Notes under the pieces: generated by a model
Databases searched by the model: none
Told to the model about the DNA's origin: nothing
Seen by the model: only the letters and a program-made list of their open reading frames with translations
Source: Escherichia coli
GTDB lineage: Bacteria > Pseudomonadota > Gammaproteobacteria > Enterobacterales > Enterobacteriaceae
Assembly: GCF_044324785.1 (NCBI RefSeq)
Contig: NZ_CP172127.1
Strand: one strand, 5' to 3'
Length of the DNA stretch: 64,000 nucleotides
Made by a program: the position numbers and the translations under genes
Shown here: positions 36,570 to 47,152 of the stretch, in pieces
Layout: each line of letters starts with the position of its first letter
Position numbering within the stretch: position 1 is the stretch's first letter

Positions 36570-36764
36570 ATGTCAACTAAGAACAGAACCCGCAGAACAA
36601 CAACCCGCAACATCCGCTTTCCTAACCAAATGATTGAACAAATTAACATCGCTCTTGAGAAAAAAGGGTCTGGGAATTTCTCAGCCTGGGTCATTGAAGC
36701 CTGCCGTCGGAGACTAACGTCAGAAAAGAGAGCATATACATCAATCCAAAGTGATGATGAATAA
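36570..36764 (+). CDS. Small DUF3950-like protein (YlcI-like)
   Basis: 64-aa ORF between cos and bor; resemblance to recalled DLP12 YlcI is tentative. Confidence 0.45.
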   Translation: MSTKNRTRRTTTRNIRFPNQMIEQINIALEKKGSGNFSAWVIEACRRRLTSEKRAYTSIQSDDE

Positions 36765-37123
36765 ACATCCCGGTTTCTTCCACCATCGCACCGGAAAAGC
36801 GACTATGAGGGTAACCCTGCGTCTGTCAGCACAGTAAAACCCGGTGTGCATCGTTTTTGATTATTCCCGCACACTCACGCAGAAGGAATTCCCCGTCGGG
36901 CTACGGTCATGGTTAATGCGGGAATACGGCGACGATACAGCGCAGCTAAAAGGGTAATAGACGGATAGACCGGTTTATTTCATTCCACAGGATTCTGAGT
37001 GCCCCCCTCCTCCAATAGGCTGAGCATCCACCTATATAGTTTTAATTTTCATCAATCCATTTAACTATCGTTTAATTGTTGTCACATAGGATTCTGCCGT
37101 TTTTAACAATGCAGGATAATAAG

Positions 37124-37417
37124 ATGAAAAAAATGTTGTTTTCTGCCGCTCTGGCAATGCTTATTACAGGATGTGCTCAACAGACGTTTACTGTTGGAAA
37201 CAAACCGACAGCAGTAACACCAAAGGAAACCATCACCCATCACTTCTTCGTTTCGGGAATTGGACAGGAGAAAACTGTTGATGCAGCCAAAATTTGTGGC
37301 GGCGCAGAAAATGTTGTTAAAACAGAAACCCAGCAAACATTCGTAAATGGATTGCTCGGTTTTATTACTTTAGGCATTTATACTCCGCTGGAAGCGCGTG
37401 TGTATTGCTCACAATAA
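37124..37417 (+). CDS. bor: Bor lipoprotein (serum-resistance-associated)
   Basis: ORF 37076..37417; start at MKKMLFSAALAMLITGCAQQ… (lipobox LITGC) as in lambda Bor; opposite orientation to the lysis genes as in lambda. Confidence 0.85.
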   Translation: MKKMLFSAALAMLITGCAQQTFTVGNKPTAVTPKETITHHFFVSGIGQEKTVDAAKICGGAENVVKTETQQTFVNGLLGFITLGIYTPLEARVYCSQ

Positions 37418-37448: not shown

Positions 37449-37910
37449 CTATCTGCACTGCTCATTAATATACTTCTGGGTTCCTTCCAGTTGTTTTTGC
37501 ATAGTGATCAGCCTCTCTCTGAGGGTGAAATAATCCCGTTCAGCGGTGTCTGCCAGTCGGGGGGAGGCTGCATTATCCACGCCGGAGGCGGTGGTGGCTT
37601 CACGCACTGACTGACAGACTGCTTTGATGTGCAACCGACGACGACCAGCGGCAACATCATCACGCAGAGCATCATTTTCAGCTTTCGCATTAGCTAACTC
37701 CTTCGTGTATTTTTCATCCAGTGCAGCAACATCACGCTGGCGCATCTGCATGCCAGTAATTGCCGCGTTCGCCAGCTTCAGTTCTCTGGCATTTTTGTCG
37801 CGCTGGGCTTTGTAGGTAATGGCGTTATCACGGTAATGATTAACAGCCCATGACAGGCAGACGATGATGCAGATAACCAGAGCGGAGATAATCGCGGTTA
37901 CTCTGTTCAT
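37449..37910 (-). CDS. Rz: Spanin inner-membrane subunit Rz
   Basis: ORF 37449..37922; from [29 protein letters not shown]… near-identical to lambda Rz. Confidence 0.85.
37508..37690 (-). CDS. Rz1: Spanin outer-membrane lipoprotein Rz1 (embedded in Rz, +1 frame)
   Basis: 60-aa ORF wholly inside Rz; lipobox VVGC and PPPPP motif, near-identical to lambda Rz1. Confidence 0.85.
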
Positions 37911-38404
37911 TGCTGGCCCCACAAACAGATTTCACGCTCAATCTCACGACGAGTCATGAGACCTTTCCATTGCTTACCGCCAGCATATGTCCAGCGACGT
38001 AGTTGATCACATGCGCCTTTGATATCGCCCTGGTTTATTTTGCGAAGAAGCGTCGATGTTCTGAAATTGCCAGCACCCACGTTGTAAACGAATGAGTAAA
38101 GAGCGCCGCGCGTTGTTTCCGGTATATCGACTTTGATGTACGGGTTAATTTGTCTGGCGACAGTGGCAAGGTCTTTATTCAAGAGTGCTTTGCATTCTGC
38201 TTTGGTATACGTTTTACCGAGCATGATGTCTTTTCCTGTATGCCCGTGACATACAGTCCATACACCAACAATATCTTTGTATGGTATGTAGCTGACACCT
38301 TCCAGACCATCGTTACCACTTGGGCCAGTGATTAACACTGATGCTATAGCAATTGCTCCGCCACCAATAGCAGCAGCAACGGCTTTTCGTAATGATGGAG
38401 GCAT
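37907..38404 (-). CDS. R: Endolysin with N-terminal signal-anchor-release domain (T4-lysozyme-like, phage 21 R / RrrD type)
   Basis: 165-aa ORF; Gly/Ala-rich hydrophobic N-terminus ([20 protein letters not shown]) then lysozyme fold; matches recalled DLP12 RrrD. Confidence 0.85.
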
Positions 38405-38619
38405 TATTCACCTCTCGCAGCCTTGCGCTTATCTTCTTTAATCTTGAAATAAAGGTTTGTCAGGTACGTCAGCAGGCCAAATACCAGGCTACCCAGCACA
38501 CCTATTGCTGCCCACTGTGAGGGCGTGACTTTATCGAGCAGCTGTAAAAACCAGTAGCCAGCACTGCCTGCGGAGGTGCCGTAGGCAATGCCCGTTGTTA
38601 ACTTATCCATGGATTTCAT
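38404..38619 (-). CDS. S: Pinholin (S21 / EssD type)
   Basis: 71-aa ORF with two TM segments directly upstream of the endolysin; stop/start overlap with R. Confidence 0.8.
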
Positions 38620-38807
38620 AGCCTCACCTCCGCAAATAACGGATGGTGTACACGGTTCGGAACGAAGAGGAAAGGTATAGAAGTTACATTAGCGTAAGGC
38701 TTGAACATCTATTCAAAAAGAAAAACGCCAGCGATTATTCTGGCGTAGCTGAAAGCATCATACAATTATCAAATACGAAAAATACAAAATCATTAAAACG
38801 CATCACG

Positions 38808-39537
38808 TTACATCATGTCTTTTTCTAAAAAAAATCTTGATAAATATTGATGGGGAGGAACACCAAAATATCTTCTGAAAACACTTACAAAATATGACGT
38901 GTTTTCATAACCGCATATCTCAGCAACTTTTCCAACAGAATATAAATTGTAGCTTAATAACCTTTCCGCCATCACCATTCGCTCTTCAAGAATTAATTTA
39001 CTAAATGATAAGCCTTCGTGCTTTAATTTTCTTTTTAACAGACTTTCACTCAGATACAGTCTTGAAGATATATCACAAAGTCTCCATGCTGCAGATATAT
39101 CCGTGTGAATAATAGCCTTAACTTTACTTCCTAAACTATTAAGACATCCAAATAAAAACTTTGCACTATTTTCTCTGAAGATAAGATAGCAAGACATGCA
39201 AGTGATATTTGATTTCTAACAAAATCCACAGTTCTGCCATCACAATTCAAGCATGCAATCAAGTTCTTTAACAATGAAAAATCTTCACATTCCACCATCA
39301 AGTATGCCGGATAAAACCTTCTTACAGAAAAAGGTGAGAGTGTGTTGCTTTTAAAGAAATCATTAACTGTTTTCTCTTCAACATCTACGATCATTACATG
39401 ATCTATATTTGATGAAAAAAATCTTTTAAATTGTAATCAATGAGAACAGCACTTCCTTTTTTAAACAAAATATCTTCTTTACCAATTCGGACATCAAACG
39501 AGTTCAACACCAAAATGATAGAACATATGTATGGCAT
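38808..39537 (-). pseudogene. AraC/XylS-family regulator disrupted by frameshifts (three consecutive ORF pieces)
   Basis: Fragments 39537-39400 (MPYICSIILVLNSFDVRIGKEDILF…, read manually), 39394-39131 and 39197-38808 (C-terminal AraC HTH …CGYENTSYFVSVFRRYFGVPP…) lie in different frames in collinear order; AT-rich. Confidence 0.55.
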
Positions 39538-39888
39538 ATTATCCACCTGATATCATTGGGGTTACACCAGGTAAGTATAGGTGGAAAATCAATATTCGCC
39601 AGTTCAACAATAAGGAAAATCTCATTGCATCACAAGTATAAAATTATGTATTTAACTCACAAAGACAAATTATTAAACCAATCTGTTATATTATATATAG
39701 CTGCGTGGAATCATAATATTATATATTTTGACTGGCATGTTTACCAACTTTAAGTTGCATCTCAATGGTTTCTTCAGCGTAAACAGAGTTTTTATACAAA
39801 CTGACACTCTGGGTATCATAGTGTAGTTTTTACGATTGTAAATATCCTGCATGCAGGAACTCATCCTTTTGGATGATATCGCATACAA

Positions 39889-40848
39889 TTAATTTACCAT
39901 CAGTCTTAGAGCCAGTTCGTCCGGATAGGGATCGAAGTAATTCTGTGTAAGCAAGTAGTCATTAGGATACTCACCCAGATAATGCTTCAGCAGAGTCAAC
40001 GGCGCAAGAAGAGGTAATGTGCCAGAACGATAGTTAAGTATAACCTCGCTCAACTCTTTACGCTGGCGTGTACTTAAGTAGTTACTAAAATACCCCTGTA
40101 TATGCATCAGCACATTCGTGTGATTTTTACGTGATGCAGGTTTTCTGAGAATCGCCATCAGCTTATCACGATACACCTCAAAGTATGATTCAAGGTCCGC
40201 CCACTCGTGTATTGCAGCCACAAATGGTCCCATATCTTTATAGCCTGCCTGACTATGCGCCAACAACTGAAGCTTATAACGACTATGAAAAGCTAATAAC
40301 TCTCTTCTTGATAATTTCTCCTTGTAAAGGTGATTGAGCTCATGCAAAGCAAAAACTCTTTCAACAAAATTCTCACGAAGCACTGGATCATGTAATCGCC
40401 CATCCTCTTCAACCGGTAGCCAGGAAAACTTTTCCATCAAAGTGCTCGTAAATAGTCCCACTCCATCTTTACGACCTCGATTACCATTTTCATCATAGAC
40501 ACGCACGCGCTCCATGCCACAGCTGGGAGATTTAGCACAAACCACAAACCCCGATACATCCTTTAATTTGTCCATATAAGAACGACTAAACTCTGTCATT
40601 CTCTCTGTCACATCCTCATTCTGGTCGTGGCTGAAACACATCCGTATATTTCCTTGCGTCGAGCGCACAAGACGTAGAGCAGGACGCGGAACTGGCAGCC
40701 CTATAGCCATTTCCGGACATACTGGTCTGAATGTTACCCATTCCACTAATTTGTCCATTAAAAAGTCAGCTCTTTTGTGACCACCATCAAAACGAACAGC
40801 AGAACCGGCCAAACAACCGCTGATTCCAATCACAGGTTTTTTTATCAT
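39889..40848 (-). CDS. DUF523/DUF1722-type protein (possible 2-thiouracil desulfurase-like family), phage cargo
   Basis: 319-aa ORF; N-terminal PVIGISGCLAG… region and C-terminal YbgA-like region; family assignment from memory only. Confidence 0.45.
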   Translation of the reverse strand: MIKKPVIGISGCLAGSAVRFDGGHKRADFLMDKLVEWVTFRPVCPEMAIGLPVPRPALRLVRSTQGNIRMCFSHDQNEDVTERMTEFSRSYMDKLKDVSGFVVCAKSPSCGMERVRVYDENGNRGRKDGVGLFTSTLMEKFSWLPVEEDGRLHDPVLRENFVERVFALHELNHLYKEKLSRRELLAFHSRYKLQLLAHSQAGYKDMGPFVAAIHEWADLESYFEVYRDKLMAILRKPASRKNHTNVLMHIQGYFSNYLSTRQRKELSEVILNYRSGTLPLLAPLTLLKHYLGEYPNDYLLTQNYFDPYPDELALRLMVN

Positions 40849-41040
40849 ATTCTCCCCCTTGACTAATTCATTAACACATAAACTGTGTAGTGCACGGAAT
40901 AAATTGCCTTTCTGGCGTCATCACTGACAATTTTTCTGTTATGGACTATTCCTAATATAGTATGAAAGTTCTTTAAGTGATCGGTCGTAATCATCTATCT
41001 TTCATACTTACTCTCAACTATCAAAAGTACAGGATTTATT

Positions 41041-41565
41041 ATGAAGTTATGGCCTGTGTTGACTGGCATTGCACTCTCTTTCACTCTTATAGCATGTAAG
41101 GCCCCGACACCACCTAAAGGTGTGCAGCCGATTACAAATTTTGACGCCAACCGCTACCTCGGAAAATGGTATGAAATAGCTCGCCTCGAGAACCGGTTCG
41201 AACGTGGTCTGGAACAGGTCAGCGCTACTTATGGAAAACGGAACGACGGAGGGATTCGTGTACTTAACCGTGGATACGATCCAACGAAAAATAAATGGAG
41301 CGAGAGCGAAGGTAAAGCATACTTTACTGGAGATACTAAAACTGCAGCGTTGAAGGTTTCGTTTTTTGGCCCCTTCTATGGTGGCTATAATGTAATCAAA
41401 CTGGATGATGAGTATAAGTATGCTCTTGTCAGTGGCCCGAACAGAGAATACCTATGGATTCTGGCAAGGACCCCAACTATTCCAGATAAAGTAAAAGCAG
41501 ACTATGTGCGAACCGCTCAAAAGTTGGGATTCAATGTCAATGAATTATTATGGGTTAAACAATAA
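41041..41565 (+). CDS. Outer-membrane lipocalin (Blc-like lipoprotein)
   Basis: 174-aa ORF with lipobox (LIAC) and lipocalin motifs (…NRYLGKWYEIARL…SFFGPFYGGYNVI…); paralog-level similarity to E. coli Blc. Confidence 0.8.
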   Translation: MKLWPVLTGIALSFTLIACKAPTPPKGVQPITNFDANRYLGKWYEIARLENRFERGLEQVSATYGKRNDGGIRVLNRGYDPTKNKWSESEGKAYFTGDTKTAALKVSFFGPFYGGYNVIKLDDEYKYALVSGPNREYLWILARTPTIPDKVKADYVRTAQKLGFNVNELLWVKQ

Positions 41566-41593: not shown

Positions 41594-41620
41594 AAAAAAA
41601 CCAGCCTTTGGGGAGGCTGG
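41594..41620 (-). terminator. Candidate late terminator tR' (intrinsic, minus strand)
   Basis: Hairpin ccagcc-(8 nt)-ggctgg followed on the minus strand by a 7-T run, about 65 nt downstream of the putative pR'. Confidence 0.45.
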
Positions 41621-41679
41621 CTAAATCAGGAAACAAGCTGTTATATGATAATAACTACGTTGCGATTCTAACATTTAAA

Positions 41680-41720: not shown

Positions 41721-42113
41721 TTATTTCGAACAATCAGCATCCATCTCCAATCGGAGATCCAACACCATCAGCATACCCTCCACTACGCCCTCAGCTTTCT
41801 GGAGCATCCTGCCAACCCAACAATCAGATCGCCCATGCTTACGTGCAAGCGCCATAAAAGTCATGCCGCCGACATAATAGTCCACCAATAAATCATGCAA
41901 ATCGCTGTTGTTCTTTTTCAGACGGGCCATGCACCCGCAAATGATCATCGCGTCATCGTCACAACATTGCGGGCGAGATTTTACTTTTGAAGGAATTAAT
42001 CCCTTAAAACCGGCGGCAATGGACGACCAGGTCACATCTTCATGATTATTAGCCGCCCACGCTCCCCAACGCTCAAGAACCATCTGAATATCACGCATCA
42101 ACTTACTCCACAA
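41721..42113 (-). CDS. Q: Late-gene antiterminator Q (QuuD / phage 82-type)
   Basis: 130-aa ORF (start may be internal MRDIQM… at 42098) with Cys cluster ([16 protein letters not shown]) in the canonical position upstream of pR' and lysis genes. Confidence 0.7.
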
Positions 42114-45625: not shown

Positions 45626-47152
45626 TTAGAAATAAATCTCACCATCAACCATATATTTGAGAGCACTTATCGCCTGCTGGGCGGATATTACTTTCATTAA
45701 AGGATAGTGTTTAAAAACAATGCCATTCATAAAATAGATATCACAGGTTTTATTATCCGTATTAATTATGATTTTTTCGAATGTTTTATAGGCAAGTGTA
45801 CGGCATAACTCTCGTCCATTTTTACTGGTTAAGTCAATAGCATAAAAATCACTGAATGAATTTACACCTTTACTCTTCAAAGTTTTCAATGATACCGAAG
45901 CCCTTCGTAATTCCTTATCTAATAGTCTTATTTTCTCTGCTATAGCGGTAACTTCAGGCGCGACAGACAATGCAACGATTAAATTATTAATTTTCATCTG
46001 AAGCTCAATAATTTTTAACTCTAAAGTTTCATTAGCATCTTTCTTGTTTTCAACTGGTTGAATTTTGCTACAATTAAAAAGCAATTCATTAATGATATTA
46101 TAATCAACCAAATCTCTTTTTATTGATGGCCTGTCACATCGATGTAATCTTCTCATCGGACAAACATAATAGCCATGCAAACTTCCAGATACCGCATGAA
46201 CAATCATGGTATTACCACAAGCCTCACACTTCATAACTGTTCGAAGTAGATTTATTAGCATAGGATTCTTGCTACTATTGCTAATACCAAAAGGTGCCAA
46301 CCGAATTTCCTGTACAGCGTAAAACAAATCATCTGATATGACTCTGGGATAATAGCCAGCGATTTCACTTATCCCTTTCCCTCTTGCACGATATGAAGGT
46401 ACGCATATACCTATCAGAGCTTTATTCGCTAATAATTTTTCAATTACAGAAGGTCCCCATGCACTTTCTTTTCCTGAGAAATTCTTTACAGCATGATCAT
46501 TTAAATACTTGGCTATTGCATTCAATGAGCGCCTTTCCATCCTGAGTTTAAAAATTAGCTCAATAGTTTTCACCCTGTCGGGGTCTGGAACAAAAGCCGT
46601 TCTTTTGTCATCTAAGGAGAGCCATCTCGGACAAGACGCCGTCATAATCGTACCTGATTCCAGTGCATCCTGCCGTTTTTTCTTCCATGATAATTTAACC
46701 CGACTTGACTTTATCTCGCTTTCTTCATTTGCCCTTTGTGCTATAAGTATGGCTTTTATTAATGAATATGGCTCATTCAAAGAGTCAATATTATAGACTG
46801 TATTGTCGCAAAGAGTTATAACATCAATACCGTGATTCAAAATCAATTTCAGACGTTCAATCGCTTCACCGACTTTTTCTCTTGAAAGTCTGTCCAGACT
46901 TTCAACTAACAATGTAGTTCCTGGCAATATATAACCATGCTCTATAGCATCTAAAAATTCCGAAAAAGCTCCTGATTGTGCATGCTTTCCTTTGAATGCA
47001 CTTAATCCTAAATCTTCATATGTTATGGTATCAAGATAATAATCACTATTTACCTTTAACCATTCAGCAATAAGTCTTCTCTGTCGGTTTAATGAGTCAC
47101 CAGACATCTGACCTGGTGATGAAAATCGCATATATGCTATGGCTTTTTTCAT
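45626..47152 (-). CDS. ybcK: Large serine recombinase (YbcK-like)
   Basis: 508-aa ORF; N-terminal resolvase domain with catalytic Ser context (AIAYMRFSSPGQ), C-terminal Cys-rich zinc ribbon (CEACGN…CPMRRLHRCD). Confidence 0.8.
   Translation of the reverse strand: MKKAIAYMRFSSPGQMSGDSLNRQRRLIAEWLKVNSDYYLDTITYEDLGLSAFKGKHAQSGAFSEFLDAIEHGYILPGTTLLVESLDRLSREKVGEAIERLKLILNHGIDVITLCDNTVYNIDSLNEPYSLIKAILIAQRANEESEIKSSRVKLSWKKKRQDALESGTIMTASCPRWLSLDDKRTAFVPDPDRVKTIELIFKLRMERRSLNAIAKYLNDHAVKNFSGKESAWGPSVIEKLLANKALIGICVPSYRARGKGISEIAGYYPRVISDDLFYAVQEIRLAPFGISNSSKNPMLINLLRTVMKCEACGNTMIVHAVSGSLHGYYVCPMRRLHRCDRPSIKRDLVDYNIINELLFNCSKIQPVENKKDANETLELKIIELQMKINNLIVALSVAPEVTAIAEKIRLLDKELRRASVSLKTLKSKGVNSFSDFYAIDLTSKNGRELCRTLAYKTFEKIIINTDNKTCDIYFMNGIVFKHYPLMKVISAQQAISALKYMVDGEIYF

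Follow-up and report, generated by a model that had tools for sequence, protein, structure and literature searches.

The lysis genes of a prophage in an Escherichia coli chromosome seem to combine parts of two well-studied phages, with a holin and an endolysin like those of phage 21 followed by spanin genes like those of lambda. The first-pass annotation of this locus took the arrangement for a mosaic produced by recombination at the boundary between R and Rz. The question is therefore whether two lysis modules were joined in this lineage, or whether the switch in similarity was inherited together with the genes. We addressed it in the window, i.e. the whole 64,000-nucleotide stretch of DNA that was analysed, by comparing the cassette with lambda, phage 21 and their relatives.

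Four lysis genes and their predicted products

The cassette (37449-38619) comprises S, R, Rz and the embedded Rz1, all four intact and on the minus strand, and is directly followed by a convergent gene, bor/iss.

38404-38619, minus strand: S (essD), 71 aa; PF04971 "Bacteriophage P21 holin S", E=2.2e-35
37907-38404, minus strand: R (rrrD), 165 aa; PF00959 phage lysozyme (GH24), E=1.3e-45
37907-37910, minus strand: ATGA overlap of the R stop and the Rz start, where homology to lambda begins
37449-37910, minus strand: Rz (rzpD), 153 aa i-spanin; PF03245, E=1.1e-53
37508-37690, minus strand: Rz1 (rzoD), 60 aa o-spanin; PF06085, E=2.9e-20
37124-37417, plus strand: bor/iss, serum-resistance lipoprotein gene; PF06291, E=6e-31

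The Pfam matches and sequence motifs agree with the identities and coordinates first proposed for these genes (pinholin-type S, SAR-type R, nested Rz and Rz1). PHROGs likewise places the four lysis genes in holin, endolysin and Rz-like spanin families (phrog_13 for Rz). NCBIfam offered an equivalog for none of S, Rz, Rz1 and Bor, and for R it gave only sub-threshold matches to lysozyme families. The cassette is the canonical four-gene lysis unit of phage 21 and of the DLP12 prophage family of E. coli, and as such is already known. We put at about 95% the probability that it is a pinholin/SAR-endolysin/two-component-spanin cassette within a full-length lambdoid prophage at argU, in which the switch to lambda similarity is an inherited, ancient boundary.

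S falls in the S21-type class II holin family, scoring 120.9 bits with PF04971 against a cut-off of 26. It begins with the dual-start motif MKSM, with ATGs at 38619 (Met1) and 38610 (Met4) and GGAGG upstream; these two starts match the S21-71/S21-68 annotation of phage 21, where S71 is the antiholin and S68 the holin. The first TMD of the protein (residues 8-26) is weakly hydrophobic, with 63% Gly/Ala/Ser/Thr and a Kyte-Doolittle value never reaching 1.2, the second (residues ~35-55) is strongly hydrophobic (up to 2.1), and a basic C-terminal tail of 13 residues follows. S is identical to the protein of an E. coli prophage (71/71), and matches DLP12 EssD at 70/71 and S21 at 62/71 residues (87%). 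S21 is known to form small pinholes, which cause depolarisation without passage of folded protein (PMC6139136), and at 87% identity to S21 the S protein probably does the same.

R is nearly invariant among its relatives, with 164/165 residues identical to phage 21 R (99%), to DLP12 R and to the RrrD structure (PDB 4ZPU), and the R21 structure (PDB 3HDE) matches it over the full length (E=2.6e-111). The Glu-Asp-Thr triad is complete (E35, D44 and T50). The N-terminus carries a Gly/Ala/Ser-rich signal-anchor-release (SAR) helix without a cleavage site; this 20-residue segment (residues 8-27) is 60% Gly/Ala/Ser and identical to that of RrrD (4ZPU). Sec-dependent export and activation upon loss of the proton-motive force are established for R21 (PMC6139136), and the near-identity of the two proteins makes export and depolarisation-triggered activation likely for R as well.

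We place the start of Rz at the ATG at 37910, as in lambda, phage 21 and DLP12, while the program-made list of open reading frames gives a GTG at 37922. The start of Rz1 lies 220 nt downstream of that of Rz, which puts it in the +1 frame, and 59 nt separate its end from the Rz stop, so that it is fully embedded. Rz has an N-terminal TMD at residues ~4-24 and cysteines at positions 14, 18, 99 and 152. Rz1, preceded by GGAG, has a VVGC lipobox with Cys20, Thr-Ser at +2/+3, Cys29 and 11 prolines. At the sequence level the pair has features of the lambda-family embedded two-component spanins: an i-spanin with a periplasmic domain of the Rz family, a lipoprotein o-spanin with outer-membrane sorting residues and a proline-rich mature part, and +1 nesting. 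Formation of a periplasm-spanning Rz-Rz1 complex and disruption of the outer membrane have been shown for lambda and are required in phage 21 (PMC6139136); the proteins encoded here would be expected to act in the same way. The automatic label of Rz, "endopeptidase RzpD", in fact denotes a spanin subunit.

S, R and Rz1 each have a Shine-Dalgarno sequence, and all four lysis reading frames are full length, with starts, catalytic residues, lipobox and cysteines intact. This state of preservation bears on whether the cassette could be a decaying, non-functional remnant. Although the neighbouring AraC-family gene carries two 1-bp deletions, due to either decay or sequencing error, the lysis genes themselves are undamaged and their exact proteins recur in public collections, S, R and Rz1 on at least 1000 contigs each and Rz on 15; we consider a remnant scarcely credible. 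Bor/Iss, too, was recovered in this exact look-up on at least 1000 contigs, so that all five proteins are represented; public records name the exact Bor protein "increased serum survival lipoprotein Iss", and the exact Rz allele is WP_434005868.1 ("prophage endopeptidase RzpD").

Counts over whole genomes gave a similar picture. With a 1.5-kb query comprising the cassette and its flanks, 5211 of 5426 complete E. coli genomes had some match, and 1923 of the 5426 (about a third) covered at least 80% of the query; the genes in the matching genomes are annotated essD, rrrD, rzpD and iss. The phage collection yielded 549 matching records, 35 of them covering at least 80%. The cassette is a textbook system, carried almost unchanged by a large share of E. 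coli genomes, and matters little as a discovery.

The boundary between R and Rz

To locate any breakpoint, sliding-window and per-gene identities were computed against lambda, phage 21, 434B, ev207, DLP12 and a near-identical E. coli prophage. Lambda (NC_001416) gave a BLAST HSP over 37910-37070 only, i.e. Rz, Rz1 and bor, at 94.2% identity. Similarity sets in precisely at the start codon of Rz, and the matches of lambda to Rz and Rz1 are far beyond chance. No BLAST alignment was obtained between the S and R genes of lambda and those of the window, and forced global alignments gave ~22% identity. In contrast, phage 21 (OL657228) aligned as one unbroken HSP (38650-36900, 94.7%) across S, R, Rz, Rz1 and bor, and in a 141-nt aligned stretch at the R/Rz junction it differs from the window by one base. 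Nucleotide identities per gene were as follows.

Phage 21: S 77.8%, R 98.0%, Rz 98.1%, bor 97.3%
Lambda: S and R no alignment, Rz 98.1%, bor 93.5%

The description of Rz and Rz1 as nearly identical to lambda thus holds, with 149/153 identical residues in Rz (97%; 98.1% at the nucleotide level) and 59/60 in Rz1 (98%). Rz matches ev207 at 150/153, phage 21 at 147/153 (96%) and DLP12 at 144/153 residues; Rz1 is identical to that of phage 21 (60/60) and matches DLP12 at 59/60. Bor matches phage 21 at 96/97 (99%), lambda at 89/97 and DLP12 at 88/97 residues. The "lambda-type" spanins of this cassette are equally the native spanins of phage 21. Rz and Rz1 genes are present in both phages and needed for lysis in both pathways (PMC6139136), and bor/iss belongs to an Rz-Rz1-bor block that lambda and phage 21 have in common.

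These comparisons speak to the proposal that an S-R pair of the phage 21 type and Rz/Rz1 of the lambda type were brought together by recombination recently in this lineage, in which case the junction between R and Rz would be fresh. The exact start of lambda homology at 37910 fits such an event, as does the marginally higher identity of Rz to lambda (149 residues) than to phage 21 (147). Against it, the same junction sequence and gene order are found in phage 21, 434B, DLP12, ev207 and ~1900 E. coli genomes, and the identity to phage 21 is equal on either side of the boundary (R 98.0%, Rz 98.1%) and complete in Rz1. Both sides are also matched by ev207 (R 98.8%, Rz 98.7%) and by an E. coli prophage (100% and 97.2%). 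We regard a recent joining as very improbable.

Of the recombination junction placed at R/Rz in the first-pass annotation, the position is borne out, as similarity to lambda does start exactly at 37907-37910, but a new joining is not, as phage 21 matches both sides. Nor does the wider claim of a phage 21 module joined to a lambda module survive, given that phage 21 carries the same Rz/Rz1/bor block with a 100% identical Rz1. Across the whole cassette, identity was 98.3% to ev207, 97.0% to 434B and 99.1% to E. coli prophages, which is the uniform match to single known phages that had itself been named as evidence against a mosaic. A novel 21/lambda recombinant is rejected on these even matches across the R/Rz boundary. 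Judged from the alignments, the junction is an old, inherited and published lambdoid module boundary, common to phage 21, 434B and DLP12, and not an event specific to this sequence. Its sharpness illustrates the long-known modular mosaicism of lambdoid phages.

The relatives differ in how much of the cassette they reproduce. Phage 21 has the same gene order, protein lengths (71/165/153/60/97 aa), dual-start S, SAR endolysin, +1 Rz1 and convergent bor. Lambda Rz and Rz1 have the same +1 embedding, TMD, Cys99/Cys152, lipobox, Cys29 and proline-rich stretch, but in lambda these spanins are paired with a class I three-TMD holin (S105/S107) and a cytoplasmic transglycosylase R, both unrelated to the proteins encoded here. 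The closest sequenced free phages are ev207, 2G7b, PhiR11_1 and others (Jouyvirus and relatives), with 98.2-98.3% identity from S through bor; proteins of the ev207 group match at 70/71 (S), 164/165 (R), 150/153 (Rz) and 60/60 (Rz1) residues. Upstream of S they carry an ompC/nmpC-type porin where this prophage has its AraC-like gene, and divergence is higher in the first ~60 nt of S. K-12 DLP12 carries the same cassette (essD-rrrD-rzpD/rzoD-borD), yet for Rz (144/153) and Bor (88/97) the phage 21 or ev207 proteins are the closer match. The lysis region of 434B is a captured DLP12 segment, and 434B still forms plaques (PMC9119081).

Variation among the references within Rz is confined to its 5′ part, outside the Rz1 overlap. 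Positions 37501-37680, most of the stretch in which Rz1 is embedded, are 100% identical in every reference, apart from one 60-nt window that is 98% identical in DLP12 and 434B. Such invariance is as expected, because this stretch codes in two frames.

The holin allele and a proposed lysis pathway

The one gene of the cassette in which phage 21 departs markedly from the window is S, with 77.8% nucleotide identity versus 97-98% in R, Rz and bor. Identity to phage 21 rises from 76% to 98% near 38424, ~20 nt inside the 3′ end of S (max-chi-square 197), and the allele is of the EssD/DLP12 type rather than that of S21. This break suggests that the holin gene has been exchanged separately from R-Rz-bor among lambdoid prophages. 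We lean, with some reserve, towards a broader reading, in which holin alleles, as the lysis clock, are swapped independently and this prophage is an intact, inducible relative of DLP12 with an EssD-type clock. Besides the boundary at R/Rz, a second module boundary lies just upstream of S, where homology among the lambdoid references resumes ~10-30 nt before the S start. Lysis timing could differ from that of phage 21, because 9 of the 71 residues of S are not those of S21.

The genes present, their motifs and their identities come directly from the sequence, and the mechanism is modelled on the experimentally studied proteins of phage 21 and lambda, to which those of the cassette are nearly identical; the pinholin/SAR-endolysin/spanin pathway is described in PMC6139136. 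The upstream Q antiterminator would activate late transcription and thereby expression of the cassette. R would then be exported by Sec and, tethered to the inner membrane through the weakly hydrophobic SAR helix at its N-terminus, stay inactive, while S71 (antiholin) and S68 (pinholin) would build up in the same membrane. At a programmed time the S products are predicted to form ~2-nm heptameric pinholes, collapsing the proton-motive force. Depolarisation would free the SAR helix from the bilayer, allowing R to refold into an active lysozyme (E35/D44/T50) that degrades the murein. Rz, with its inner-membrane anchor and coiled-coil periplasmic domain, and Rz1, an outer-membrane lipoprotein, would be joined by their C-termini across the periplasm; removal of the murein would free the Rz-Rz1 complex to fuse the two membranes and thereby disrupt the outer one.

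Prophage setting and late expression

The cassette belongs to a prophage of ~45 kb (roughly 12737-57491) that occupies the argU/DLP12 site of K-12. It is flanked by nfrA-ybcH-envY-ompT on one side and by tRNA-Arg(tct) (57507-57583) and the sfm fimbrial genes on the other, with the int gene adjoining the tRNA. Full-length reading frames are present for the integrase, an S24-type repressor, replication, Q, terminase, portal, capsid, tape measure, J and a side tail fibre. The cassette is of use for annotation as a marker of the late-gene end of the full-length lambdoid prophage at this site.

The location also bears on a possible role outside the phage cycle, as a domesticated host module such as has been suggested for DLP12 of K-12, with functions in cell-wall maintenance, biofilm and the production of outer-membrane vesicles. 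The prophage sits at the DLP12 locus at argU, its lysis genes bear the same annotations as those of K-12 (essD/rrrD/rzpD), and the DLP12 lysis module modulates vesicle production (PMC7918800). K-12 DLP12 has its cassette at the same locus (argU/intD to the ompT side) but is a deleted 21-kb remnant, in which an IS5-disrupted nmpC lies between quuD and essD; the ~45-kb prophage with its full-length phage genes is unlike it in this respect. Since the prophage genes are full length, phage release is the simplest role of the cassette, and we consider domestication unlikely, though a host role and a role in phage release are not mutually exclusive. The homologous cassette of K-12 DLP12 resides in a defective prophage, which implies that not every copy serves to release virions.

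Between the antiterminator gene and S lie three cargo genes and two candidate hairpins, the latter found by consensus scan only.

41721-42098, minus strand: Q-family late antiterminator (QuuD-like); phrog_79 anti-termination protein Q-like, E=3e-51
41622-41599: candidate terminator-like hairpin, ~100 nt downstream of the Q gene
41041-41565, plus strand: Blc-type lipocalin, cargo
39889-40848: YbgA-like gene, cargo
38808-39546: AraC-family gene, cargo, broken by the two 1-bp deletions
38725-38746, minus strand: candidate terminator-like hairpin with a T-run, between the AraC-family gene and S, ~100 nt upstream of the latter

Q is labelled "antiterminator Q family protein" in near-identical prophages and, going by lambdoid synteny, is the presumed activator of late transcription reading through to S-R-Rz. 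The late promoter pR′ and a Q-binding element were not located, the region downstream of Q having aligned too weakly with DLP12 and phage 21. Consensus scanning for promoters and terminators found no more sites than in shuffled sequence, and the six terminator-like sites against 4.2 expected are not above chance. With ~3 kb of cargo genes and a candidate hairpin between Q and S, expression of the cassette would depend on antitermination. The relatives are built differently at this position: DLP12 has the nmpC porin where this prophage has its three cargo genes, and in phage 21 pR′ is directly followed by two tRNA genes, upstream of S.

Allelic variation along the lysis cassette

Identity to phage 21 rises from ~76% in S, the pinholin-type holin gene, to ~98% in R (the SAR endolysin), Rz (a spanin subunit) and bor, with the step near position 38424, in the 3′ end of S (38404-38460). 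When ev207 is the reference, the break is instead found near 38556, the initial ~60 nt of S being more diverged. Both of these identity breaks fall within S, which suggests that holin alleles may be exchanged by recombination separately from, and independently of, the other genes of the cassette.

Within Rz, variation was distributed according to the overlap with the second spanin gene, Rz1. The segment 37501-37680, which makes up most of the Rz stretch that also codes for Rz1, does not vary among lambda, phage 21, ev207 and the E. coli prophage compared, and is 98-100% identical to the window in DLP12 and 434B. In contrast, the non-overlapped 5′ part of Rz (compared over 37681-37920) is variable, at 88-100% per 60-nt window. 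All amino-acid differences from lambda Rz (S2N, D53G, A66E and D73N) precede the Rz1 start.

The region between the Q antiterminator gene and S

The following features were found on the late-transcript strand upstream of S:

38725-38746, minus strand: terminator-like hairpin with a T-run, ~100 nt before S and past the AraC-like gene
38808-39546, minus strand: AraC-family regulator gene immediately upstream of S, disrupted by two single-base deletions
41599-41622, minus strand: terminator-like hairpin with a T-run, ~100 nt after Q, in a tR′-like position

The deletions in the AraC-family gene lie near 39422 and 39159, as judged against the intact 243-aa allele of E. coli HCM-24C-3, and the counterpart gene in strain BEC1-S17-ESBL-07 is annotated as 'frameshifted'. 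The frameshifts could be either true pseudogenisation or homopolymer sequencing error. As for the two hairpins, the terminator scan returned no more sites than the shuffled expectation; if they are real, expression of S-R-Rz would depend on Q-mediated read-through.

A cargo ('moron') block (39889-41565) also lies between Q and S:

39889-40848, minus strand: YbgA-like protein, 319 aa
41041-41565, plus strand: Blc-type outer-membrane lipocalin (NCBIfam NF007786, E=5e-95)

In place of this lipocalin/YbgA-like cargo, K-12 DLP12, 434B and ev207 have an nmpC/ompC-type porin, whereas phage 21 has two tRNA genes.

The prophage, its chromosomal site and its variable intervals

The cassette is part of a lambda-like prophage of ~45 kb (window ~12737-57583), which looks complete. 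Its integration adjoins tRNA-Arg(tct) (57507-57583), a site that in K-12 holds the 21-kb cryptic DLP12, and it is flanked on one side by ompT/envY/nfrA and at the opposite end by the sfm fimbrial genes. The prophage carries a recombinase gene:

45626-47152: ybcK, large serine recombinase

Homology with an aligned prophage of 99.1% identity also points to putative emrE, ybcL and ybcM genes.

The interval from bor to the small terminase gene (36781-37070) is without ybcV and ybcW, both present there in K-12 DLP12 and strain A17, and shares the shorter arrangement of phage 21, 434B and ev207. The sole ORF in this shorter arrangement is:

36570-36764, plus strand: YlcI/YnfO-like DUF3950 ORF

A further ~850 bp (51486-52333) is absent from the otherwise 99%-identical HCM-24C-3 prophage, which has a DUF3800 gene at this position. 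The features concerned are:

50698-51453: S24-type repressor gene, adjoining the stretch
51812-52255, plus strand: 147-aa ORF within the stretch

A Pfam search with the 147-aa ORF gave no significant match, and the aligned region of BEC1-S17-ESBL-07 encodes a hypothetical protein of equal length (147 aa). Lying next to the immunity region, the stretch is typical of variable positions for cargo or defence.
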